Shown: piece by piece, positions 4,645 through 32,368 of the stretch | Layout of the letters: the number at the start of each line of letters is the position of its first letter | Numbering within the stretch: position 1 is the first letter of the stretch | Assembly: GCA_023480605.1 (NCBI GenBank) | Contig: JAMCWS010000349.1 | Location: 6,132-45,086 of the forward strand | Source of the DNA: a bacterium | GTDB taxonomy: Bacteria > Sumerlaeota > Sumerlaeia > MVZB01 | Length of the DNA stretch: 38,955 bases | Direction of reading: 5' to 3' | Translations under genes and position numbers: made by a program | The notes under the pieces: generated by a model | Told to the model about the DNA's origin: nothing | Database searches by the model: none | What the model saw: only the letters and a program-made list of their open reading frames with translations

Positions 4645-5026
4645 GTTTTCATGCTTTCCGAGAACCATGACGATCGACACAAACCTTACGAGACACGAAT
4701 CGATGTGATTAATCTTGCGTCTATGCGCCTTCGCGCCTTTGCGAGACAAACATCAAGCTGAAGCTTGAACTCCACACGGGTTTTCCAGCATGTCGGTTGC
4801 GGCTTCGCCGCGTTGTGCATTTGCCGAAATCGGTCTTCGTGACGACCCGTTCAATCCGCCGCCAGGATTGGGCGGCCAGCGAGTGACGGTCGAGCAGGCC
4901 AGCGGCTTCCCACGCGACGGGCGGTCGGTCCTAACGTTGCGCAATGAATGGCCGGCGCCTCACGACACGGATTGAAACTTGGTGTACAAGGATCTTGTGT
5001 CTCTTCCCAATTGAATTGATGGCCTA

Positions 5027-5869
5027 CTAGCCCCGTATTTTGCCGAGGAGTCCCCGAAGGTAATTCAAGTCGTCTTTGGTTCCTTCGGTCAGGGCTTCAA
5101 GCGTTCCTTCGTAGAAATGGTGTGTGCAGATGGGGCCCTGATAATCGATCTTTACGAGTTGGCCCAGGATGGCGGGCCAGTCGATCAGGCCTTCCGCCAG
5201 GCGCGTCCATTCCATTTTCCAGGTCAACTTGCGGGCTTGCTTGAGATTGGGACCCAGGAACCAGCCGCAGTTTTTGGTCACCACGTAAGCGAGGTGTTCC
5301 TGTAGTATATCGAGTGATTTGACCGGATCGGTCCACCCCTCCTGGTGCACCATGTTGCCTGGATCATAGTGAACGCCAATCCCTTTGGGATCACGGTCGT
5401 GAATGAGGAAATAAATCGCTTCGGGCGACCAGCAAAACCCCCCGCCATGGGTCTGCAGCAAGGCCTTAACGCCATATTTCAAGCCCAGTTTCTCGACCGT
5501 TTCCACTGATTGGCGGCAGCGGGCCAGGTCTTCGCGATACGTGTTGTATCCCCGGTAGTTCTGCATCCAGAAGCGAAACATCGTGATGCCGTTGTCGGCG
5601 AACAGGCGAAAGTCATCCTCGATCTTCGCCAAGTGATCATGGCTCCAATCGGTCGTCACGGTGTAAGCCTTGAGATTGCGACCGCGCATATAATTGACAA
5701 ACGCCGGAAGAGTATGAAAATAATCCTCTTCCTTGCACCATGATCCCGTACGGATCATAACATCGACACCGTCAAAGCCGCAGTCGATCAAGTGATCGGC
5801 CAATTGTTCCTGTTCCCTGAGGTGCGGATACTGGAACTTTGGGAAAAGTAGCACATCGGGGGCTTTCAT
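5027..5869 (-). CDS. Sugar phosphate isomerase/epimerase (xylose isomerase-like TIM barrel) family protein
   Basis: 280-aa ORF with AAAGGA 7 nt upstream of the ATG. Pattern: GFDGVDV.., ..LLQTHGG.., ..GVHYDPGN.., typical of the AP_endonuc_2/TIM-barrel family. Confidence 0.7.
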   Translation of the reverse strand: MKAPDVLLFPKFQYPHLREQEQLADHLIDCGFDGVDVMIRTGSWCKEEDYFHTLPAFVNYMRGRNLKAYTVTTDWSHDHLAKIEDDFRLFADNGITMFRFWMQNYRGYNTYREDLARCRQSVETVEKLGLKYGVKALLQTHGGGFCWSPEAIYFLIHDRDPKGIGVHYDPGNMVHQEGWTDPVKSLDILQEHLAYVVTKNCGWFLGPNLKQARKLTWKMEWTRLAEGLIDWPAILGQLVKIDYQGPICTHHFYEGTLEALTEGTKDDLNYLRGLLGKIRG

Positions 5870-5906
5870 GCTGTAATCCTTTCTTTAATAATCAAGTTTC
5901 GCATAT

Positions 5907-6737
5907 CTATGCACGGGCCCAGATTGCGCGCAAATATTTCGCCGACCGCGGCAATACCACCTCGGCAGGCCCCGACAGCGTCCGGCATTCCACCTCGATG
6001 ATACCGCCGTATCCCATCGCCTTGAGGGCATGAAATCCGGGCGTGAAATTCATCGCGCCGGGACCCGGTTCGACGCGCGTGTTCTCGGCCACGTGGATGT
6101 GCGCGATCCACTTCGCGCCCTTTTCGAGCGCCTGGGCGATATCCAATTCCTCCATCTGCATGTGAAAAAAATCCGCCGTCAAACCGATGGAGGGGTGATC
6201 GAGCGCCTCGCAAATCCGTGTCCCGTCGGCGACGGTATTGAGATAATCGGACTCGTAACGGTTCACCGGCTCGAGCAGCAGGTAAACGCCGCGTTGTCCG
6301 GCTTCGTCTCCCAATTGCGGCAGTTGCTCCAGCAGCAACGCGTTCCGCGTCTCTACTGCCGAGTCATCGGCGCCGCCCTGGGTGATGCGTTCGGGATTAT
6401 CCTGGATGAGGACCGGGGGCATGTTAAATCCCCAAACCCCCAACTCGGCACACAGGTCGAACACTCGCAATAGGCTCGCGCGGCATTGGGCCCGCACCGC
6501 GGGCCGAGGGCTGACGAGTGTGCCCGTGAAGCCAAGCGAGAGGGTCGCCAGCGGCAAGGGAAGGTCGCTCAGGCAGGCGCGCAATTCCTCCAGGTAGTCA
6601 TTTAAAAACCGCCCCGGCAGGGCGACGGCATCGAATCCAAATCGCTTGGCGCTATTAAGGCGGTCGATGATCCGCGCGCCCGGTAGCATCTCCAGCCGAC
6701 AGGAGAGGGCGCATTGTTTTGTATCGCTGCCGATCAT
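5907..6737 (-). CDS. Sugar phosphate isomerase/epimerase (xylose isomerase-like TIM barrel) family protein
   Basis: The ORF is trimmed to the ATG at 6735-6737, which overlaps the TGA (6734-6736) of the upstream gene as ATGA. Motifs: GFDAVAL, LLLEPVNRYE, HIHVAEN, GYGGIIEVE. Confidence 0.7.
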   Translation of the reverse strand: MIGSDTKQCALSCRLEMLPGARIIDRLNSAKRFGFDAVALPGRFLNDYLEELRACLSDLPLPLATLSLGFTGTLVSPRPAVRAQCRASLLRVFDLCAELGVWGFNMPPVLIQDNPERITQGGADDSAVETRNALLLEQLPQLGDEAGQRGVYLLLEPVNRYESDYLNTVADGTRICEALDHPSIGLTADFFHMQMEELDIAQALEKGAKWIAHIHVAENTRVEPGPGAMNFTPGFHALKAMGYGGIIEVECRTLSGPAEVVLPRSAKYLRAIWARA

Positions 6738-8164
6738 GGTGTTTCCATGCCTTTCGTTGATTTTCCGGCTCGCGCGGCGCAATCCGGCAGATCCCGCCGG
6801 ATCTCATCCAGCCGATAGCCGAATCCCGCTCCCTGGATCGTCGAAAGATCCACCGCACCGCGCCGCCGCTGGTAGATGCCGGGATGCACTGCCTGCTCGG
6901 GCAGCGAGGCGGTGGGGTAAAACTGCATCCCGTTGGTCTCCACGCCCATGATTGTTCCGGCGTGAGCGGCCAGCAATACGTGGGGGATTTGCGCCAGCAT
7001 CGGATTGGTCAAATCCTGGACCATGAGCGTCATGCCGTGGGCCTTCGCCCAGCAAAGGCTCAGGAGCGCGCCCGTTTGGGTCTTGCAGGTTTTGAGTGCC
7101 ACCCCCGACCAGCCCAGGATTCGTCCCAGGCGAATGAGGCGCCAGTCGTGGGCGCTTTCGTCCATGAAGAGCGGTTTGCGCGCCGAGACGCTGTGCACGT
7201 CGATCTGATTGGCCTCCAGATCGTAGGGGAACGGCTGCTCGACGTAGAGGATCATCTGGTAGATGCGCGGATGATTGCGCATCAGGTGATCCAGAATTGC
7301 GTTGAGGTATTCGGGATCGGTGACGGTGCAGTTGAAGTCGCTGGTCAGCCAGATGACGCCCTGCTCAATGGCAATCTCGCCCACCCGCACCAACCGGGCG
7401 ATGTCCCACGCCGCGTCATTGCCGCGCAACTTGACCTTGAGGCAGGTCAGGCCGTCACGCGCAATCCAGTCGGCCAGCAAAACGGGGTAACCATCGTCGG
7501 GTTCCGATCCGTTCAGTTCGCTGGAATTAATGGGATCCCTGCCACCGACCAGATGCCACGCCGGTAGCGATTCGCGGCGGGGCAATTCCAGGTAGTCGGC
7601 CGGATATTTGCCCGCGAAAGAGACCGGCGAATCCTCGGCGGGGGTAAGGTAATGAGCCAGATCCGCGTTCATGTATTCTGCGTTGTATGTGCCATAAATC
7701 GGCCGGTTGTGATGAATCCCATAGGCGTCGTGCAGCGCGATGTCGAAGGCCGAACAGCAAACCAACGCCGGGAGCCATGGCATCAATTCGCGCCCGGCCC
7801 GGCCACGGTTGAATGCCACATGCAGCGCCTTGAGCGGCCCTTCTTGGAACGCGTGCCCGATCTCCAGCGGATGGCCGGCCACCGGAAACGCCGCCCAAGC
7901 CTCGGTCAGCGTCTTGCAAAAGACTTTGAGCGCCTCGTGCCGCTCCTCGTAGGATAACGCACTGGGCCAAACCCATTGCACGCTGAGCGGCGTTTCGCCC
8001 CAGCCTTCCGCCGCGCGGCCGCGGGCGTCGGTGACGCTCAGCCGCACCCGCGCACAGGTGACGAAGGTCAGCGTCTCGGGGCCGAACTTGAGGGGCACGC
8101 GCGTCTGAACCGGTAGAAAATAAAGGACCGCTGCCGTTACCCGGACGTCGGTTACTTTGGGCAT
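6734..8164 (-). CDS. Enolase-superfamily (mandelate racemase/muconate lactonizing enzyme-like) protein, about 476 aa
   Basis: The ORF is trimmed to the ATG at 8164 (MPKVTDVRVTAAVLYFLPVQTRVPLKFG.., a typical capping-domain start), 21 nt after the upstream stop. Barrel motifs: LKVKLRGND, SDFNCT, YVEQPFP, FMDESAH, ALKTCKTQ. Confidence 0.7.
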   Translation of the reverse strand: MPKVTDVRVTAAVLYFLPVQTRVPLKFGPETLTFVTCARVRLSVTDARGRAAEGWGETPLSVQWVWPSALSYEERHEALKVFCKTLTEAWAAFPVAGHPLEIGHAFQEGPLKALHVAFNRGRAGRELMPWLPALVCCSAFDIALHDAYGIHHNRPIYGTYNAEYMNADLAHYLTPAEDSPVSFAGKYPADYLELPRRESLPAWHLVGGRDPINSSELNGSEPDDGYPVLLADWIARDGLTCLKVKLRGNDAAWDIARLVRVGEIAIEQGVIWLTSDFNCTVTDPEYLNAILDHLMRNHPRIYQMILYVEQPFPYDLEANQIDVHSVSARKPLFMDESAHDWRLIRLGRILGWSGVALKTCKTQTGALLSLCWAKAHGMTLMVQDLTNPMLAQIPHVLLAAHAGTIMGVETNGMQFYPTASLPEQAVHPGIYQRRRGAVDLSTIQGAGFGYRLDEIRRDLPDCAARAGKSTKGMETP

Positions 8165-8184
8165 CAGTAGTTCACCGCCGCCTG

Positions 8185-9189
8185 TCAAAGATAAGCCGAC
8201 ACGTCGATCGCCTCGGGTAGGCCCGTCTTGAGCGATTCGTAGGCCTTGAGCATGAGAAGACTGGCAACTACGCCCTGCGAGGCCGGGGTGGGATTTTCGC
8301 ACCGCCCCAATACGACGTCACGAAAGACTTCCATGTCGCGACTAAGGCCGATACCCACCTGATAGTCATAGTCGATGCTGTCTTGTACTTTGCCTTTGAG
8401 GGTCAGGTTCGTGAAGCCGCGATTGATCGCCGTAACGCCGGCGCCGAAAACCTCCGTATGCCATTTGAGGCTGAAATCATTGGCGCCGCAATCGCCACTG
8501 ATGAGAGTGGCCAGCGCGCCGTTTTCGAATTCGATATTCATGATGAAGTTATCGATCACGTCCACGCCGGGGTGCCAGAGATTGCCCCCTTGCGCGAAAA
8601 CCCGCACCGGTTTGGCTTGCATCAGGTAAAAAACGAGATCGACATTGTGGCAGGCCAGTTCGAGCATCGGTCCGCCGCCCCGCAGCGCGGGTATTTTCAG
8701 GTATTTCTCGTGAGTGCGGGCAATGTCCGCCACCATCATCCGGCCATAGAGCATCTGCGGCTGGGGGATGGCTTCGCGAATGCGCTTGACCAACGGCGAA
8801 AGACGATAGCAATACGCCACCATCGCCCGACCCTTGGCAAGGCGCTCGGCCTCAACCAGCTCACGGCACTCTTCGATGGACATGGCCGCCGGTTTTTGTA
8901 TAAAGACATGTTTGCCGTGTTCCAGGACGGTTTTACCCAGGCGGGCATGGGTGTCGGGAAGCGTATTAATCAGCGCCGCATCGATCTGATCGTCCTCAAG
9001 CAAACGGTTGAGGTCGGTTGTGTGATAATCGCCATCGAACTGCTGGCACACCGCGGCGCCTCGTTCCGCATCCACGTCCACGAAGCCACGCAAATGAAAC
9101 TCATCGATTGCCGCAGCCTCCGGCAAGATAACATTCTTGGCGATATTTCCGCAACCGATCACGCCTAACTGCACCTTCGTCTTCATCAT
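8185..9189 (-). CDS. Gfo/Idh/MocA family NAD(P)-dependent oxidoreductase (cytoplasmic type)
   Basis: 334 aa with the N-terminal Rossmann string VQLGVIGCGNIAKN and HVFIQKP. AAAGGA lies 5 nt upstream of ATGATG. Confidence 0.8.
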   Translation of the reverse strand: MMKTKVQLGVIGCGNIAKNVILPEAAAIDEFHLRGFVDVDAERGAAVCQQFDGDYHTTDLNRLLEDDQIDAALINTLPDTHARLGKTVLEHGKHVFIQKPAAMSIEECRELVEAERLAKGRAMVAYCYRLSPLVKRIREAIPQPQMLYGRMMVADIARTHEKYLKIPALRGGGPMLELACHNVDLVFYLMQAKPVRVFAQGGNLWHPGVDVIDNFIMNIEFENGALATLISGDCGANDFSLKWHTEVFGAGVTAINRGFTNLTLKGKVQDSIDYDYQVGIGLSRDMEVFRDVVLGRCENPTPASQGVVASLLMLKAYESLKTGLPEAIDVSAYL

Positions 9190-9807
9190 GTCAGTCCTTT
9201 CGGAAGATTACGGCGAATTTTTCGTATGGTAGAGAGAACGATCCGAAAAGACAAATATGAAAGTCGGTCGCACCGTATGGGCCATGAAGTTGTAAAGCGA
9301 TTAGCGCAGACAAAATGGCGTATTGTGAAACCCCCTCACATGGGGCAGCGCGGACTGGCCAACCCGCGGCCGTCTTTGCCCGGTTCCATCTGTCGGGAGG
9401 ACCGCCGTACCCCTGCGCTGCCAAAGATACACGGACCCCGACCGAAATCCTGGCCACCGAAGGCTTCAATCCGCCCCGCCTCCCGTTCAATTCTCTTGAC
9501 CAAGACCAACGATCGCCAAACGGTTTTACACGCCGGGCCCGACCGAGGGTGGGGGTCGGAATTCGCTTCTTGGCCGCTCGGCATGCTTTGCCCCATTTTC
9601 GATCCATAGCGGGGTTCAAAATCCGGCGATGCGGATTGGAGGTGCCCCCAAACATCCCATGAGTCAGACAAGAATGAACCATTCTGATTTGAAAATGGCA
9701 AATATCGGTCGATGATGACCGAGTGTGACTCCAAATATTATCCTATATCCCCCGCAATGGGTTTTATACAATCCCGTTCATCAATAGGTGAGAGGGAGGC
9801 GGTGTTT

Positions 9808-11010
9808 ATGGCATCTCGCGAACCCACAGTTTATCTCGCGCACGAGCGACCCCCATCGAGTCCGGACACAACCACGCGTTCTCGGCGTCAATTCCTGGCC
9901 CAAGCCGCTGCGGCGGCCACGCTGACCATCGTCCCACGCCACGCGCTTGGCGGTCCGGGCCAAGTCGCGCCCATTGAGAAAACCGCCCTGGCGGCCATCG
10001 GCAACGGAGGCCAAGAAACCCAGGACATCCAGGATCCAATCGTCGGACGGACACAAACATGTGAACGCGAAAGGAATGCATTCATGAAGGATCAGGCGAA
10101 AATCACCCTCGTCCAACTGACCTATGACGAGAAGAAAACGGAAAAGAACGCCGATTCGGTCATCGACCGTATGCCGGCCTTCTTCCAGCAAGCGGCCGAC
10201 AACGGCTCGGATCTGATCGTCTTTCCGGAGTACGTCCTCGGCCAACGTATCACGGTTGGGCACGAGCGTGTCCAGCGTTTTTTCGCCCTGGCCCGCCGCC
10301 ACAATATGTACGCCATTGCCGGTATGGTCGAGACCCACAATGAGCGTTGGTCGACCACGGCCCTGATGGTCGATCGCGCGGGTAACCTGCTGGGTCGCTA
10401 TTACAAAACCCACCCCGCCTCAGGACCGGCGCCCCACTGGTGGCCGCCGCGCGAAGGCAACGATTCCGAGGCGCGTGGTTGGCTCGGTAACCAGTTCAAG
10501 GTGTTCCACCTCGACTTCGGCCCCATCGGCATCCTGGAGTGCTACGACGGCTATTTCCCCGAGGCATGGGGATGCACATCGTTCTCCGGCGCCGAGATAA
10601 TTCTCTGGATCAACGGCCGCAACGGATTCATCGAGGATTCTCACTGCATCTTCGCCGCGAAGGCGTACGGTTGCGTCGTCGGCGCGAACATCACCAATGG
10701 GCGAAACACGGGATTCGCGGCGCCCAACGGCGCACCATCGCCGATCCTCATCGCCGAAGGACCACACGCACAAGGAGGCGAAGAGATGCGCCTTTACCCG
10801 CGCATCAAGGAGCCCGGAGACGCCTGCGTCCATGCCACGATCGACCTGGCCCGCCTCCGCCACCACCGCAAGCATCTGCGCACAATGCACCAGCGCCGTC
10901 CCGAGCTTTATGGTCTTTTGACCCAGGAAGTCAAAATGTGGCAGGATTACCCCGACATCCCTTGGGACTGGCCCGAATGCGAAGCGATGGTCAACCGCTC
11001 ACAATTGTAG
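9808..11010 (+). CDS. Carbon-nitrogen hydrolase (nitrilase superfamily) with an N-terminal Tat-signal/Rossmann remnant; the alternative start at 10084 would give the bare hydrolase
   Basis: Catalytic-triad context: DLIVFPEY (Glu), YYKTHP (Lys), ILECYDGYFPE (Cys). GGAGG lies 8 nt before ATG 9808 and GAAAGGAA before ATG 10084. Residues encoded by 9856-10041 resemble the N-terminus of the oxidoreductase at 14995-16443. Confidence 0.75.
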   Translation: MASREPTVYLAHERPPSSPDTTTRSRRQFLAQAAAAATLTIVPRHALGGPGQVAPIEKTALAAIGNGGQETQDIQDPIVGRTQTCERERNAFMKDQAKITLVQLTYDEKKTEKNADSVIDRMPAFFQQAADNGSDLIVFPEYVLGQRITVGHERVQRFFALARRHNMYAIAGMVETHNERWSTTALMVDRAGNLLGRYYKTHPASGPAPHWWPPREGNDSEARGWLGNQFKVFHLDFGPIGILECYDGYFPEAWGCTSFSGAEIILWINGRNGFIEDSHCIFAAKAYGCVVGANITNGRNTGFAAPNGAPSPILIAEGPHAQGGEEMRLYPRIKEPGDACVHATIDLARLRHHRKHLRTMHQRRPELYGLLTQEVKMWQDYPDIPWDWPECEAMVNRSQL

Positions 11011-23844: not shown

Positions 23845-23874
23845 GCCGAATCGAAAGCCAATGAACGATTCGGC
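23845..23874. promoter_or_regulatory. Perfect 9-bp inverted repeat (gccgaatcg N12 cgattcggc) 37-66 nt upstream of the sigma-factor start; candidate operator or 5' hairpin
   Basis: Read directly: gccgaatcg at 23845-23853 and cgattcggc at 23866-23874. Its function is unknown. Confidence 0.3.
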
Positions 23875-23910
23875 CGGCGGCGGTGTCATGGATTGTAGAG
23901 GGAGTCACGC

Positions 23911-24513
23911 GTGCGATTCGACGACGAGTTGATGCGCCAGATCATGGAACGGGCTTCGGCGGCGACGGACGCTTTCGAGACGCTTTTTCGCCGCCATGGC
24001 GAAATGATTCGCCGTTTCGTGCGCCGCATCGTACGGGATTCGGACGCGGCCGAGGACGTGGCTCAGGAGGTGTTTCTGCGCGTCTGGACGCGCGCCGAGC
24101 AATGGCAGGGGCGCGGTCCGGTCAAGGCGTGGCTCTACCGGGTCGCCCAGAATCTGGCTCTCAACAGCATGCGTTCAGCCCGGCGCCACCGGTGCGAGTC
24201 GCTGGACAGGGCCGCCGAGGCGGCGCTGGATGACGACGACGTTCCGCAGGGTTGGCTCGTCGACGCCGCGGCGCTGGGACCCCACGAGGTTGCCGCAGAG
24301 GCCGAGCGCTATGCCCTTGTGCGCCGACTTGTGGACAGTTTGCCCGACGACAAGCGTGAGGTCGTGCGGCTGGTGACCGACGAGGACCTGGGCGCGGCCG
24401 AGGCGGCGCGGCGGCTGGGGATTCCCGAGGGCACAGTCAAGTCGCGCTTGCATTACACAACCCGGGAACTGGCCACTAAATGGAAGGAATTGGAGAAGGG
24501 GGAATCCGAATGA
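23911..24513 (+). CDS. ECF-type (group 4) sigma-70 family RNA polymerase sigma factor
   Basis: GTG start with GAGGGAG 6 nt upstream. Region 2: AEDVAQEVFLRVW...WLYRVAQNLALNSMR. Region 4: LPDDKREVVRLVTDEDLGAAEAARRLGIPEGTVKSRLHYTTRELA. The TGA at 24511-24513 overlaps the ATG of the next ORF. Confidence 0.9.
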   Translation: MRFDDELMRQIMERASAATDAFETLFRRHGEMIRRFVRRIVRDSDAAEDVAQEVFLRVWTRAEQWQGRGPVKAWLYRVAQNLALNSMRSARRHRCESLDRAAEAALDDDDVPQGWLVDAAALGPHEVAAEAERYALVRRLVDSLPDDKREVVRLVTDEDLGAAEAARRLGIPEGTVKSRLHYTTRELATKWKELEKGESE

Positions 24514-27500
24514 ACATGGCACCCGATCTCTCGACGCCCTGGCATAGGGCTTCTTATGAGGCATTTCTGCACGAGCGGTTGCCGCAACTGCTTGGCGAGC
24601 GGCTGCCGCTGGCCAGTTACCGCGTGGAGTACATGAGCGACCGCTCGTGCCGTATCGTCCTGTCGCTCGCGATGCAAACGGGTGACGTGCCGCTCGACTT
24701 TGCCGGCCTTCCCCAACCGGATGACGAAGGGATCTTCATGATCGACGGCACGAAGCGCGTGGTCGTGCCCTTGGCGTCATCGGAGGATCTGAGCGCGGCC
24801 GAGGTCCGGTGTGTCGGAGAGCAGCTTTACAGCTTCATCGAGGCGCGCCTCGGGCAGGTTGGCGCCGACATGCCCGCCGATCCGTCATTGCTGCGGGCGC
24901 TCGTGCCTTTGGATAAGTGGTTCGCGGAATTTTTCTTAATGGGGCTCATTTATGAAGACGCAAGCGAACCAAAGGTGATCCATCCGACATCCCAGGCGCT
25001 TGACGTAACGAATTGGCTGGCGACTCAAACCCACCTGCGCCGAATCCTGATCGAGAATCCCCACTCGGTGATTCACCCCGGCCAGATGGGGCGCGCTTGC
25101 CCGTTCGAGACGCCCGAAGGCCCAAACATCGGTCGGGTGCTGTCGCTCGCATGCGGAGCAACCATCCGTAACGGCAAAATTATCGTGGTCGATGATGCGC
25201 CCGCGGCGGCCCTGGGCCTGACGGCGTCGATGGTGCCGTTCGTTGAACATGACGACGCCAATCGGCTCCTCATGGGTGTCAACATGATGCGCCAGTGGCA
25301 GGTGCCGCTCGAGCCCGAACCGGCGCTGGTTCAGACCGGCAAAGAACCGAGCGCGGCGGGGTTCTGGTGCGGCGTGAATCTCCTCACCGCCTTTGTATCC
25401 TGGGGGGGCGACACTTACGAGGATGGACTGCTCATCAGCGAGTCGTGCACGCGTCGATTCCGGTTCGAGCATCCGGTGGAGCCGGGCGACAAGCTCAGCA
25501 ATCGCCACGGACAAAAGGGCGTCATCAGCCGCATCGCCCCTGACGACGAGATGCCCCATCTGGCCGACGGAACGCCCGTGGAACTGGTCTGCAATTTCAT
25601 CGGCCTGCACTCCCGGATGATCTTCGGGCAGGTGTGCGAAGCCCTCGCCGGCCGGATCGCGCGCGCCGAGGGGACGCCCGTGGTCGCGCCGCCCTTCCAC
25701 GCGCCAAATGTGGACGAATTGCGCGAACGCCTGAGGCGCGCGGGACTGCCCGCCTCAGGCATGGAAATCCTTACGATTGGCAAAGATGGCCCGCCGCTTC
25801 AGCGGCCAAGCACCATCGGCTGGATTTACTGGGGCCGGACGGTCCACGATGTGCGCACGAAGCTCCACACCTTCGTGTCGACGCCGGGCGAAGGGCAAGA
25901 ACAAGGGGAACTTGAATACTACGCGTTGCGCGAGGCGGGCGCGTTCGAGAACGTGGCCGAATCTTTCAACACCCGTTCGGCAAGGCGTTCTGACGCCGCA
26001 ACACTCGCCGCGCGCCTGGCCGCCGGCCCGGTCGAACAGGCTCCGCCGCCGCCGCCATGGTTTGCAGACCTCATGAGCCGACTCGCCGCCGCGAGCATCA
26101 AGGCGACGCTCGATGAGGAGAAGCTGCATTTCAAGATGGCCGCGCCTTCCGAGCCGGCGCTCACGTTGGCCCGTCCGTTGCCCCACCCCTGGCTGGCGGA
26201 AATTGAAGTCGCCGCGGTCGGCGTCCGCGAGAACGACCCGTTCTACCACGCCCTGGCGCAGGCCAATGCGCGCGCCGAGCGGGCCCTGGCGTCCGGAGCG
26301 CCCGAGGTTCTCACGCACCAGACCCTCCACCAGCTTCGTAAACGCTTGACCGACTATTTCGATGGTCTGGTCCCTCACGAGATCATGCTTCCGAGTGAAA
26401 GGAATCTGTTCAGCGGCCGGTCGGTCATCATTCCGGGCGGGGATCTGACGTTTGAACAGGTCGGTCTGCCCGAGGGGATGGCGTGGGAGCTATTCGGACC
26501 GATTCTGGCGCGCGAGATGGGCGATTCGCAGGAAATCGCAAATCGGACGCCACGGGTCGCCGCAGCTCTCGACAAACTCATGGCCCGCTCGTGGGTCGTT
26601 GTCAATCGCCAGCCCTCGTTCTGGGCCGCGAGCCTGTTGGCCTTCCATCCGGTGCGCGTGCCGGGGCGGGCCATCCGACTGCATCCCCTCGCGTGCCCCT
26701 TGCTCAATGCCGACTTTGACGGCGACCCGGTTGCCGTCTTCCTGCCCATCACCGAAGCCGCCCAGCGCGAGGCCGGCGAACGGCTGAGTGTTGTGGGCCA
26801 GTTGCGCCGTGATCCGGAGCGGCTCCTGCCCTGGCTTTGCCCAACCCAAGATGCGTTGTGGGGCCTTGCCGCGCTCAGTTTCGATGCGGCCCGACGCGAC
26901 GAAATCCGCCGTTTGACAGGCGCCGATCTCATCGGCGCGGAGGGCTTCGTCACGCGCGCGTCGCTGATCGAAGGCCTTCGCGCCATTCATGAAGCCGAAG
27001 GTCCCCAGCGCGCACTTCAGGTCAGCGAGGCACTGATGCGACTCGGCATGCGCATCGCCAAAGAGAGCGGCGCTTCGTTTAGTCCCTTCTTCGGCGAGAG
27101 CGTCAGCCGCCCGCCCCTTCCCGCAATCGATCGCCGTGAGGAGTGGCTTGACACCTGCGCCGATCTGACCGAGCGAATCGCCTCACGCGTCGACTACGAC
27201 GCCGCGGACCTGGGGCCACAACTCTTGGCCGTGAAGAGCGGCGCGCGGGGCAATCTTCAGCAGCTGGTCAGCCTTCCCGGCACGCCGGGAGTCGTCATCG
27301 ACGGGGCCGGGGGCTTCGTTCCCGTGCATCGCGGCTTCGCCGAAGGGCTCCGGCCCGAGGATGCCTTCGCCCGCGTCTTCGGCGCGCGTCTGGGTTTAGC
27401 CCGGGTGCTTCTGGAACCGGCCAGCCTCTGGCATGCCTATGCCGTCGAGCATCCCGGGCCGTCGAAGGGCTTTAATGTCCTCGCGCGCGCCATGCGCGCC

Positions 27501-27602
27501 CGTCGCCCCGGCGTCGTCTTCGCCCGCGCCGCGGCCATCGGCGAGATCGACCCCCTCGCCGATCTCGACAGCCGGCTGCTGGTAGGCTTGCCGGCGAAAT
27601 AA
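24510..27602 (+). CDS. Miniature single-chain RNA polymerase-like protein: fused RpoB(beta)-like and RpoC(beta')-like catalytic cores, 1,030 aa
   Basis: The ORF is intact. ATG 24510 sits in an ATGA overlap with the sigma stop, with gaaggggga upstream. Beta and beta' signature motifs occur in the canonical order (see the motif features and findings). TAA at 27600-27602. Confidence 0.9.
   Translation: [1030 protein letters not shown]
25107..25133 (+). other. RpoB-type ETPEGPNIG motif inside the mini-RNAP
   Basis: Translates exactly to ETPEGPNIG, in the context [26 protein letters not shown] (compare bacterial RpoB HP.[18 protein letters not shown].SL). Confidence 0.9.
25242..25265 (+). other. 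RpoB-type (V)EHDDANR motif inside the mini-RNAP
   Basis: Context [28 protein letters not shown] (compare RpoB ..[24 protein letters not shown]). Confidence 0.9.
25485..25520 (+). other. RpoB double-psi beta-barrel motif GDKxxxRHGxKG inside the mini-RNAP
   Basis: [12 protein letters not shown] is followed by [37 protein letters not shown] (compare RpoB GDKMAGRHGNKGVISK...[22 protein letters not shown]). Confidence 0.9.
26232..26366 (+). other. Beta' clamp-helix (coiled-coil)-like segment, the canonical primary sigma region-2 docking site
   Basis: [45 protein letters not shown] aligns by eye to E. coli beta' ..[46 protein letters not shown]. Similarity is weaker than for the catalytic motifs. 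Confidence 0.55.
26706..26726 (+). other. RpoC catalytic Mg-binding motif NADFDGD inside the mini-RNAP
   Basis: aat gcc gac ttt gac ggc gac, in the context [28 protein letters not shown] (compare RpoC [28 protein letters not shown]). Confidence 0.95.
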
Positions 27603-30349: not shown

Positions 30350-32368
30350 TCATTCGTAATCCAGCCATTCGCGCGAAGCGCTCTGCGTCGTCAGGTAGAC
30401 GGGCGTATTGAGAACGAGCGAGACGACCCGGCGGCGGACGACGTTCGGGCCGGCCGTATAGCCGAACGTGTAAGTGATCGAGCCATCGGGGACGAGGGTC
30501 GCGTAGATCGCCCCGGCGGGCAGCACGGCGAGTGGTGAAATACCGCCGTCGCCGCCGAATTCAACGCGGCGCGTGAACCCGCCAAGCTGGAGAGGCTGCG
30601 CGTAATCGCGATCGCCGACGCCAAGGGTCGGCAAGGCCAGGTCGCCGCCCGATATGTTGATGTAAAATAACACGCTGAAACCCGGGTAAGTATCGGACAA
30701 TCCCGCCGGGCCGACGCTGCGGCGCACCAGCGCGACCGTTGCCCCGCTTGGGGCGGTGCTGGTGATGGCGGCGAACTCGGGCGAGGCCGCCGTGTAACCA
30801 TCGAGCAGACCGAAGGCCTCCGGTCCGCCCGCGAGTGCCACGATGTAGGGCGTTTCTCCGCCGTCGGCCAGGAAGGGATTGCGAATGCGGCTGCCATAGA
30901 CTGGGGTCATCGTCACGCCGGTCGTTGAGCCGTCATATGACTGGACGGTGCTTGAGCCGAAAAGAAACCGGCCGATGCCGCCATTCGGCGTCCCGCCAGA
31001 GACGTCGATCCCGCAGCCGGCGCTGGTGATCGTGGTGGCGGCCAGTTTGATGGCGCCCCCGCCGCCGCCCCCGCCGCCGCCGCCACCACCGCCTTTGCCG
31101 CCCGCCGCGCCGTCGCCGCCATTGCCGCCGGCCCCGCCGTGACCGCCGGACCCGCTGGAGCCGTCTCCGGGTTTGCCGGAGGCGCCGACGGTGCCTGGCG
31201 CCCCCGCGATTCCCATAGAGCCGTCTTTGCCCGGCTCGCCCGATTCTCCGGCGTCGCCCCTGGCAAGAAGGTGCGCCGCCACGGTCATGCGGCCGCAAAC
31301 GATAATTTCAAGCGCCCCGCCACCGGCGCCGCCGGCGCCGGCGATCCCGCCGATGCCGCCGTCGCCTCCCAGATCGCCGTTGCCGCCGTCACCCCCGGCG
31401 CCCCCGGCGCCCCCGGCGCCCGTAAAGCCACTGCCGCCCCCGCCGCCACCCCCGCCGCCGCCGGCGCCGTTGCCGCCATAACCCCCGCCACCCCCGCCGC
31501 CGCCGCCCGAACCGCCGCTGCCGCCGCCACCGCCGGAGATCGTATCGCCGGTGCCGGTGTTGATGCCCGGAGTACCCTGCTGACCATTTGTCCCGCCTTT
31601 GCCGGGCGAGCCGTTCTGACCATCACCCCCTTTGCCGCCGCTGCCGCCATTGGTTCCGGCGAAGAAGACATACGCGCCGCCGCCGCCGCCACTGCCGCCC
31701 TGGCCATGTACGCCGGAGTCTCCCGCCGCGCCGCCGGCGGGTCGACTCACGAGGGACGAACCGCCACTCCCGGGGGAATTGACGCCGTCCTGTCCCGGAT
31801 CACCGAGGAAACCATCGACGCCATCACCGGCCGCGATTTGCGCCTCTGCCGTCGCCAACGCGCCTATCTGGCCGGATGTGCCGTTGGCGGCGGTAACGCC
31901 GTGGCCACCGGCGCCCCCGATTGAGATGTCTACGGTGTAAATATAGCCGCCGAATCCTATTGAGCCGTACTGGCCATGGATTCCCCCGGCGCCGCCGCCG
32001 GGACCGGGAATGGGCCCGTTGGCCGAAGCGTCGAAAACGACGCCGGCCGGGATGGTGGCTTGGCCCCCGACAAAGAGCGACACGGGACGCGAACCCATGA
32101 GCGTTACGGTGTCGGTGGCCGCCAGCGATAAGTCTCCGGCGATGTAAAAGCGGGCGATATTGTCTTCGACGCGCGCCTTGAACGGCACGCCGTTGAACGT
32201 CGCCGGATTGCTGTCGGTATCGCCCGTAATCGTCAGGTCGGTTGAGTTGATGACGATATCGGCGCCCGCGACTCGGGAAGGCGCACCGAACCCGGCGATG
32301 GTTGCGAGGGCGACCAAACCCCAGCGCAGCGGGATCGTGCATTGGACAAGGTTGGTTCTGTTGATCAT
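30350..32368 (-). CDS. Secreted glycine-rich repeat protein with collagen-like (G-X-Y) and PGRS-like (GGxGG) tracts
   Basis: 672 aa with GGGGGAA 8 nt upstream of the ATG and the signal-like string LRWGLVALATIAGFGAPSRVAG. The central roughly 315 aa are dominated by Gly, e.g. GEPGKDGSMGIAGAPGTVGASGKPGDG and GGAGGAGGDGGNGDLGGDGGIGG. The N- and C-terminal domains are non-repetitive. Confidence 0.75.
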   Translation of the reverse strand: MINRTNLVQCTIPLRWGLVALATIAGFGAPSRVAGADIVINSTDLTITGDTDSNPATFNGVPFKARVEDNIARFYIAGDLSLAATDTVTLMGSRPVSLFVGGQATIPAGVVFDASANGPIPGPGGGAGGIHGQYGSIGFGGYIYTVDISIGGAGGHGVTAANGTSGQIGALATAEAQIAAGDGVDGFLGDPGQDGVNSPGSGGSSLVSRPAGGAAGDSGVHGQGGSGGGGGAYVFFAGTNGGSGGKGGDGQNGSPGKGGTNGQQGTPGINTGTGDTISGGGGGSGGSGGGGGGGGGYGGNGAGGGGGGGGGGSGFTGAGGAGGAGGDGGNGDLGGDGGIGGIAGAGGAGGGALEIIVCGRMTVAAHLLARGDAGESGEPGKDGSMGIAGAPGTVGASGKPGDGSSGSGGHGGAGGNGGDGAAGGKGGGGGGGGGGGGGAIKLAATTITSAGCGIDVSGGTPNGGIGRFLFGSSTVQSYDGSTTGVTMTPVYGSRIRNPFLADGGETPYIVALAGGPEAFGLLDGYTAASPEFAAITSTAPSGATVALVRRSVGPAGLSDTYPGFSVLFYINISGGDLALPTLGVGDRDYAQPLQLGGFTRRVEFGGDGGISPLAVLPAGAIYATLVPDGSITYTFGYTAGPNVVRRRVVSLVLNTPVYLTTQSASREWLDYE
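31058..32008 (-). repeat. Low-complexity GGN-codon repeat region encoding the Gly-rich core
   Basis: Long runs of gcc/gcc/ccc on the + strand, e.g. 31040-31140 and 31300-31530. The + strand mirror frames give poly-Pro and poly-Ala ORFs. Confidence 0.85.

Follow-up and report, generated by a model that had tools for sequence, protein, structure and literature searches.

A single-chain, flapless beta-beta' RNA polymerase encoded next to an ECF-type sigma factor in the Sumerlaeota and other bacterial phyla: a putative two-gene transcription module

We analysed a 38,955-nucleotide (nt) stretch of DNA from a bacterium of the Sumerlaeota (GenBank assembly GCA_023480605.1, contig JAMCWS010000349.1, forward strand, positions 6,132 to 45,086), referred to here as the window, in which a gene for a sigma factor of the extracytoplasmic function (ECF) type is followed directly by a gene encoding reduced forms of both large subunits of bacterial RNA polymerase, beta and beta', in a single polypeptide that we call the mini-polymerase. 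A bipartite promoter motif precedes the pair, and the two genes recur together in at least eight phyla. We interpret the family to which this protein belongs as an apparently undescribed minimal sigma-dependent RNA polymerase. The features of the locus are collected in Table 1.

Table 1. Features of the sigma/mini-polymerase locus, in window coordinates (aa, amino acids; ORF, open reading frame; AF2, AlphaFold2 model).
Feature	Position (nt)	Strand	Basis or remark
ECF-type bipartite promoter TGAAC-N16-GTGTC	23862..23887	+	Sole exact match in window
-35-like element TGAAC	23862-23866	+	
-10-like element GTGTC	23883-23887	+	Inside GGTGTC, 23882-23887
Shine-Dalgarno-like GAGGGAG	23898..23904	+	6 nt before the sigma GTG start (23911)
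ECF-type sigma factor, 200 aa	23911..24513	+	Pfam Sigma70_r2, Sigma70_r4_2; TIGR02937
Sigma region 2, aa 25-92	23983-24186	+	Sigma70_r2 68.9 bits, above Pfam cut-off
Sigma region 4, aa 136-187	24316-24471	+	Sigma70_r4_2 42.6 bits, above Pfam cut-off
Single-chain minimal beta-beta' RNA polymerase	24480..27602	+	ORF 1040 aa; probably 1030 aa from 24510
ATGA overlap, sigma stop / polymerase start (M11)	24510..24513	+	Preceded by GGAGAAGGGGGAA
Reduced beta1 (protrusion) N-terminus, aa 21-118	24540..24833	+	hhalign to E. coli beta 30-173, E 0.006
Fork / rifampicin-pocket region (Rpb2 domain 3), aa 172-229	24993..25166	+	Pfam PF04565 E 6e-10; E. coli beta 510-581
15-residue connector ESCTRRFRFEHPVEP, aa 321-335, in place of the beta flap (E. 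coli 829-1054)	25440..25484	+	Alignments
Beta double-psi barrel catalytic motif GDKLSNRHGQKG, aa 336-347	25485..25520	+	Aligned to E. coli beta 1063-1074
Junction, aa 548-585, between E. coli beta end (1342) and beta' part	26121..26234	+	Beta alignment ends at aa 547; beta' starts at aa 586
Beta' clamp helices (coiled coil), aa 586-631	26235..26372	+	hhalign to E. coli beta' 266-311; AF2 hairpin
Beta' catalytic motif NADFDGD, aa 743-749	26706..26726	+	Family alignment to E. coli
Bridge helix, aa 959-978	27354..27413	+	E. coli beta' ~769-790; AF2 helix 959-978; R970 invariant
C-terminal conserved segment, aa 1010-1037, resembling beta' region H (E. coli 1328-1355)	27507..27590	+	Third hhalign match

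The Pfam domains Rpb2_3, Rpb2_6 and Rpb1_2 are all found within the one chain, and hhalign aligns it with E. coli beta at a probability of 100 (36% identity over the aligned blocks) and with E. coli beta' at a probability of 99.9 (27% identity). Bacterial models outscore archaeal ones (NCBIfam), and by its sequence the chain plainly descends from the bacterial beta and beta' subunits. Structure prediction with AlphaFold2 from 48 family sequences gave a model with a mean predicted local distance difference test score (pLDDT) of 90.8 and a predicted template modelling score (pTM) of 0.88. The top Foldseek matches of this model were exclusively bacterial and plastid beta or beta' chains, each spanning half of it (TMq <=0.43), and no solved structure of a fused mini-chain was among them. 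Both catalytic barrels are present, the beta-type barrel with its GDK...RHG..KG lysine motif (Rpb2_6, E 5e-37) and the beta'-type barrel with the Mg-binding motif NADFDGD (Rpb1_2, E 2e-19). Residues for catalysis and nucleic-acid handling show little or no variation across the 48 sequences: G336, D337, K338, N341, R342, H343, G344 and G347 of the beta-barrel motif never vary, and neither do D747, G748 and D749 of the beta' motif, whose residues N743 to F746 are conserved in at least 90%. Residues R710 and N743 correspond to E. coli beta' R425 and N458, which have roles in ribonucleotide use, and their conservation in the family thus fits the use of ribonucleotides by the mini-polymerase. In the rifampicin pocket (nt 24993-25060, aa 172-194) the counterparts of E. 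coli Q513, D516, H526 and R529 are retained, while F514 is replaced by Ala173 and S531, at a position that varies in the family, by Leu190; S531L is the classic resistance change. Five family members (P0009, P0021, P0022, P0023 and P0031) carry FAEG or FADG in place of FEDG (window aa 312-316), which makes the equivalent of E. coli beta E813 an alanine and leaves one acidic residue of the pair.

The preliminary description of this DNA, made from the letters alone, had proposed that the beta flap is deleted from the chain while a coiled coil like the beta' clamp helices is kept. Its motif and connector coordinates are exact, with TYEDGLLISE at aa 312-321 (nt 25413-25442) and the connector at aa 321-335. 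In E. coli beta the corresponding motifs are FEDSILVSE at 812-820 and GDKMAGRHG from 1063, so that the spacing from FEDG..ISE to GDK.SNRHG is 14 residues in the mini-polymerase and 242 in E. coli, in agreement with the roughly 230 residues that had been quoted for RpoB. The E. coli interval includes the lineage-specific SI2 insertion of about 100 aa, and other bacteria have about 130 residues between the motifs. Three independent alignments (phmmer against Protein Data Bank chains, a family hidden Markov model against E. coli RpoB, and hhalign with a probability of 100) all pass from E. coli beta ~824-828 to ~1055-1057 and leave the flap unmatched, and the best stretch of the Rpb2_6 profile covers only positions 215-354 of 373. 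The short connector is not confined to the window: among the 120 best homologues, 91 could be scored by a motif pattern, and 89 of these have 14 residues here, the other two having 15 and 25, while the unscored examples that we inspected share the spacing. Since connector length is nearly constant across the scored homologues, the deletion is a character of the family rather than a local accident. Relocation of the flap to another part of the chain was considered and rejected, as every secondary-structure block of the model belongs to beta, to beta' or to a junction of 38 aa, and the model contains no unassigned beta-rich domain.

The clamp-helix segment proposed earlier (nt 26232-26366, aa 585-629) aligns with E. 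coli beta' 266-309 (hhalign probability 99.9) and is modelled as a hairpin of two helices, 587-604 and 609-630, in a block with pLDDT of 85-95. With no flap found elsewhere and a coiled coil predicted here, both outcomes on which the preliminary description had staked its proposal came out in its favour. Within the hairpin N596, P608 and L630 are invariant and R601, L611 and L619 are conserved in at least 90% of the sequences, and the family also conserves the positions that match E. coli N276, R278, R281 and P288.

This contrast between a lost flap and retained clamp helices is real and is part of a much wider reduction of the enzyme. In the beta part the main hhalign match runs from aa 102-547 along E. 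coli beta 446-1342, to its very C-terminus, with gaps opposite 582-652, 709-786, 829-1054 (the flap) and 1149-1176. The second match, over aa 21-118, is weak but colinear and includes a GTFxINGxxRVxV motif. Of the beta lobes, all thought to be missing, the beta2 lobe (E. coli ~150-445) is indeed gone, but a reduced beta1 N-terminus is kept. In the beta' part, aa 586-1028 correspond to E. coli 266-837, which means that about 265 N-terminal residues including the Zn ribbon are absent, slightly more than the 230 or so first estimated. About 20 residues are deleted at the site of the rudder (E. coli 311-330), and of the rim helices only a truncated form is left. In canonical beta' the trigger loop, SI3 and jaw sit between the bridge helix and region H; because the mini-polymerase chain stops about 60 aa past the bridge helix (nt 27414-27602, aa 979-1040), all three are absent. 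The likeness of its end to region H has a low hhalign probability, with 32% identity over 28 columns, and within the family the tail FARAAAxGExDPLxDxDSRLxVGLP is highly conserved. Between the two parts, where the sequence would be expected to hold the missing Zn ribbon, clamp N-terminus and lid, lies the 38-aa junction, which is free of cysteine (there is none in the mini-polymerase from aa 387 to 738) and carries a family-specific conserved motif, LAxPVPHPWL, with P570 and W571 invariant among the 48 sequences. The string PLPHPWLAE does precede the clamp helices as had been described, but its proposed equivalence to the beta' motif PV.PP.LRP is ambiguous, as aa 548-585 have no significant hhalign alignment. 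The only suggestion from hhalign is E. coli beta' 75-131 (LAsPtaHIWF) at a probability of 0.2%, and to the eye the PEWM motif that precedes the lid is an equally good fit.

The partner protein has the composition of an ECF (group 4) sigma factor. It scores 95.9 bits against the sigma70-ECF model TIGR02937 (cut-off 42.9), it exceeds the Pfam cut-offs in regions 2 and 4, and no Pfam match to region 3 or region 1.1 was found in its 200 aa. Region 4 is thus ordinary, in line with the preliminary description, and region 2.2 retains the canonical EDxxQExFL motif. The recognition helix of the sigma factor, GTVKSRLHYA, and the -35 core, GAACTT, resemble the RpoE case. The stop codon of the sigma gene overlaps a start codon of the polymerase gene in ATGA, which suggests that the two are translationally coupled. 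Because of this overlap the true start of the polymerase is probably M11, which would make the 1040-aa ORF 10 residues too long; this fits the disorder of residues 1-12 in the model (pLDDT <50), and tblastn matches of homologues mostly begin after about residue 12 of the longer ORF. A gene for an orthologous sigma factor (150-210 bits to that of the window) immediately precedes the polymerase gene, on the same strand, at almost all of the 80 loci examined, and sigma and polymerase have diverged to a similar extent, at about 50% identity. No fusion of the two proteins occurs among the best 120 matches of either.

A search by k-mer counting over the 260 nt upstream of 74 sigma genes revealed two overrepresented words, TGAACTT and CGGTGTC, that together form one bipartite site with the consensus T-GAAC-(T/C)-T-t ... 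G-C-G-GTGTC-(A/T)-T. TGAAC-N15/16-GTGTC is present in 68 of the 74 upstream regions, compared to a mean of 0.017 and a maximum of 1 in 1000 shuffles. GAAC and GTGTC are separated by 16 nt at 65 of 70 sites and by 15 nt at four, the end of the -10 element lies 17-27 nt from the sigma start codon in most loci, and a purine-rich block, aGTrGAgG, is conserved after the -10 element in the alignment of the sites. The motif is non-palindromic and resembles ECF promoters in its AAC...GTC character and in its spacing. Over 1.0 Mb of loci it occurs 76 times (allowing gaps of 15-17 nt), 73 times before the sigma/mini-polymerase module and three times elsewhere, the latter being no more than expected by chance. 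Where the sigma gene is not adjacent, in the loci L050, L164 and L167, the motif stands directly before the polymerase gene. The preliminary description had reasoned that, with the flap gone, either the geometry of -35 recognition must differ from that of canonical holoenzymes or region 4 must dock elsewhere. The first is not borne out, since TGAAC stands at a rigid 16 nt, and the second may still apply. The conservation of a -35 element at the canonical distance indicates that region 4 is used for its recognition and that, at the level of the DNA, the geometry looks ordinary. The earlier alternative had overlooked a host core with a flap as a possible user of the promoter, and the motif could be read either by the mini-enzyme, with region 4 docked elsewhere, or by that host core. 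ECF sigma factors commonly autoregulate their own operons from conserved upstream motifs (PMC7826278). That signature, a bipartite motif upstream of the sigma factor's own gene, is found here, and the motif would accordingly be a candidate target of this sigma.

Several sites without a neighbouring sigma gene deserve a separate description. On two AT-rich metagenome contigs the exact motif precedes a mini-polymerase gene (L164, SDBT01104508.1, 826-853; L167, SDBV01029114.1, 1630-1657), there is no sigma gene within 4.7 kb upstream, and the upstream neighbour encodes a threonyl-tRNA synthetase with an 'archaea-specific' editing domain. An archaeal host for L167 was rejected, the closest homologues of this synthetase being bacterial (Gemmatimonadetes, Planctomycetes). 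On the Chthonomonadaceae contig L050 (3875-5000) a gene for an IS200-like transposase adjoins the promoter and the mini-polymerase gene; the cognate sigma gene is not adjacent and the only sigma gene nearby, 4 kb off, encodes an unrelated ECF sigma. A 19-base version of the promoter (TGAACTTTT-N9-GCGGTGTCAT) was found at 7 metagenome sites, two of them before mini-polymerase genes. The other five (L165, L166, L168, L169 and L170) lie away from any sigma or mini-polymerase gene and may be members of a regulon or chance matches; one lies 96 nt ahead of an ORF that, judged by eye from its N-terminus, resembles a histidinol-phosphate aminotransferase.

The best 120 matches to the mini-polymerase are proteins of 1002-1067 aa with 49-59% identity, all of them unnamed or annotated as 'hypothetical'. 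Carriers amount to 203 of 185,579 genomes (one genome per species) and include Latescibacterota, Poribacteria, Planctomycetota, Chloroflexota, Armatimonadota, Hydrogenedentota, Gemmatimonadota and a verrucomicrobial lineage, several of them as closed chromosomes of 4-8 Mb; OZ242036.1, OZ252149.1 and OZ252228.1 are examples of closed chromosomes with the module. When all ORFs of 85 loci from at least eight phyla were clustered, the sigma factor and the polymerase were the only conserved gene families; no gene for alpha, omega, an anti-sigma factor, a cargo protein or another specificity factor was common to these loci. No NCBIfam model reaches its cut-off for the mini-polymerase. The plasmid, phage and IMG/VR collections yielded no member of the family, and in PADLOC-DB 2.0 the polymerase had no match and the sigma factor only a weak helix-turn-helix match. 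A defence-system or mobile-element origin was therefore rejected, the neighbours being chromosomal as well. In the window the module is embedded in ordinary chromosomal DNA for sugar degradation, with glycoside hydrolase and oxidoreductase genes. Further along (30350-32368, reverse strand) is an ORF of 672 aa, situated in a stretch with a G+C content of about 0.70 and consisting mostly of glycine-rich repeats of the GGxGG type, with an N-terminal hydrophobic segment and no Pfam match. No description of the mini-polymerase family was found in the literature, with subscription journals outside the coverage of the search.

We consider it rather probable that the sigma factor is the initiation factor of the mini-polymerase and that the two genes form a self-contained transcription module, in which the sigma factor would bind the mini-enzyme itself. 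The partnership is suggested by the coupled pairing of the genes across phyla, by their similar divergence and by the lack of any other conserved specificity factor. Clamp helices are the canonical docking site of sigma region 2, and docking on the mini-polymerase is suggested by their survival in so stripped an enzyme, by their conserved positions and by the canonical region 2.2 of the sigma factor. In such a holoenzyme region 2 would dock on the clamp helices and melt the -10 element, while region 4 would bind the -35 element TGAAC without a flap-tip helix, positioned either by the linker between regions 2 and 4 together with the DNA or by a surface that takes the place of the flap, for which the LAxPVPHPWL junction is a candidate. 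Such an enzyme would drive its own operon at least, in a positive feedback loop, and perhaps unlinked targets as well. In its fullest form, which we put forward tentatively as possible rather than probable, this interpretation would make the sigma factor and the chain of about 1030 aa a complete orthogonal sigma-dependent machine of about 40% of the canonical mass, which uses normal -35 and -10 elements without flap, Zn ribbon, lobe, jaw or trigger loop, holds region 4 by a new surface (e.g., the junction) or by the linker alone, and has reached at least eight phyla by horizontal transfer.

A number of observations count against this assignment of the sigma factor to the mini-polymerase. The promoter geometry is fully canonical for ECF sigma factors and is what a host core with this sigma would use. 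An E. coli core without the flap is reported to be defective at -35-dependent promoters. The clamp helices also have a structural role in the core and bind NusG/Spt5, and for that reason their retention alone is no proof of sigma docking. Substitutions of E. coli clamp-helix residues R275, E295 and A302 were reportedly found by Arthur et al. in 2000 to disrupt sigma70 binding, and these residues are not conserved in the mini-polymerase, where, in alignments read by eye, their counterparts are A595, T615 and R622. Without a trigger loop, catalysis would be expected to be slow unless the loss is compensated. Finally, the top pairs in an analysis of covariation between sigma and polymerase (mutual information with average product correction, 63 pairs) are scattered and show no enrichment in the clamp helices, so that the measure is uninformative. 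The strongest pair (z = 6.8) joins sigma aa 106 (24226-24228), a residue of the linker, to polymerase aa 750 (26727-26729), directly after NADFDGD, and the remaining ranking looks like noise; linkers of ECF sigma factors are known to reach the active-site cleft.

The main competing explanation is a host core, with its flap, that reads TGAAC-N16-GTGTC with the sigma factor, the mini-polymerase being a regulated product that acts without this sigma, for example by starting from nicks, ends or single-stranded templates, or with another factor. The standard -35/-10 spacing, the ordinary regions 2 and 4, the absence of flap and Zn ribbon from the mini-enzyme and the divergence, in the same by-eye alignments, of clamp-helix residues important for sigma70 in E. 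coli are all as expected if the host core is the reader, and ECF sigma factors often autoregulate their operons from such motifs (PMC7826278). Such a division of labour leaves unexplained, however, why the sigma gene has remained tied to the polymerase gene across at least eight phyla with overlapping stop and start codons, why no other conserved specificity factor is found nearby, and why the clamp helices survived when nearly all peripheral modules were lost. We regard it as unlikely, if still a serious competitor, and the two models are compatible, as one sigma factor could serve two cores. Considerably less probable is a role of the mini-polymerase as a decoy or regulator that sits in the position of an anti-sigma factor and sequesters the sigma on its clamp helices. 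The gene order, with the sigma first, a coupled partner second and an autoregulated ECF promoter in front, does mimic that of sigma/anti-sigma operons (PMC7826278), and no recognisable anti-sigma factor is conserved nearby, but a decoy would have no need of catalytic motifs and nucleic-acid-handling elements kept under strong purifying selection over about 1000 aa, nor of the complete two-barrel active centre seen in the model. That the chain is an artefact (a pseudogene, a mis-assembly of rpoB and rpoC or a decaying duplicate), for which nothing speaks beyond its likeness to deleted rpoB and rpoC, is refuted by conservation and can be dismissed in view of an intact ORF, a confident fold, identical deletions in 120 homologues of 1002-1067 aa and copies in 203 species-level genomes including closed chromosomes.

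Should the sigma factor indeed serve the mini-polymerase, this would be the smallest RNA polymerase of the cellular type to work with a sigma factor from a -35/-10 promoter, a natural experiment that would allow a direct test of the textbook view that the flap-tip helix sets the spacing between the two elements, and of whether promoter-specific initiation can do without trigger loop, lobe, jaw and Zn ribbon. With its known promoter, the pair of genes would also serve as a compact orthogonal expression system. The biological question is then why Poribacteria, Latescibacterota, Planctomycetota, Chloroflexota and others with large genomes keep a second, private polymerase; as a speculation, an enzyme without flap, jaw and Zn ribbon might evade inhibitors directed at those parts of the host enzyme. 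Even if it is the host core that uses the promoter, the family still represents a widespread polymerase that has apparently gone undescribed.

With a bacterial core and its ECF sigma (as in the Mycobacterium tuberculosis sigmaH complex 6JCX or with E. coli sigmaE) the module shares both barrels with their GDK and NADFDGD motifs, the fork, the bridge helix and the clamp helices, as well as sigma regions 2 and 4 and a bipartite AAC...GTC promoter with 16-nt spacing. It differs in that the mini-enzyme is one chain of about 1030 aa whereas the canonical subunits amount to about 2750 aa in two, in that flap, flap-tip helix, beta2 lobe, Zn ribbon, rudder, rim helices, trigger loop, SI3 and jaw are all missing, and in that the module includes no gene for alpha or omega. 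The mini-polymerase falls far below the cut-offs for rpoB (TIGR02013, 181.7 bits vs 801) and rpoC (TIGR02386, 127.9 vs 963.5). Its best NCBIfam match is to a model of RpoBC fusions of the kind known from Helicobacter and Wolbachia (NF011417, 210 bits vs a cut-off of 4632; NF007172, 179 vs 5372). The order of fusion is alike, with the beta C-terminus joined to beta', but those proteins are complete, at about 2800-2900 aa, whereas the join in the mini-polymerase skips about 265 N-terminal residues of beta' and most peripheral domains are deleted. The classical sigma/anti-sigma operon also differs, as the second gene here encodes a polymerase without any anti-sigma domain (Pfam) and there is no third conserved gene. 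Kuznedelov et al. are said to have found in 2002 that deletion of the flap tip from the E. coli core impairs -35-dependent initiation while extended -10 promoters still work; that mutant and the mini-polymerase both have clamp helices without a flap-tip helix, and yet the promoter of the natural enzyme keeps a conserved -35 element.

Single-chain polymerases are also found in mobile elements, where the crAss-like enzyme is a virion polymerase, that of P23-45 is fused to a tail tape protein and Orf6 of pGKL2 belongs to a yeast killer plasmid. Such enzymes are barely recognisable by sequence as beta/beta' and are not known to use factors of the sigma70 family. The mini-polymerase resembles them, and YonO of prophage SPbeta, in being one reduced two-barrel polypeptide without a trigger loop (10.1101/2022.12.01.518664; PMC2919709). 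It differs from YonO-like enzymes, with YonO compared by description only, in being plainly derived from beta and beta', in its chromosomal location and in having an ECF sigma at nearly all loci together with an ECF promoter. The best whole-length viral match to the model was a 'minor tail protein'-fused polymerase model (1144 columns, TMq 0.40). A viral contig (L087, IMGVR_UViG_3300047160_035186, 4710-10124) encodes a protein of 1805 aa with a beta-type followed by a beta'-type barrel and about 100 aa at the position of the flap, which is a different fused two-barrel polymerase outside the mini-polymerase family. The non-virion RNA polymerases of phages AR9 and phiKZ are likewise reduced cores without alpha and omega that are co-encoded with a dedicated specificity factor, but they consist of 4-5 polypeptides, their specificity subunit is not a standard sigma, they use no -35/-10 promoters and they are viral (PMC7598289). 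What is new here compared with all of these is that a known pairing, that of an RNA polymerase with a sigma factor, probably occurs in a natural form that is minimal, fused and flapless.

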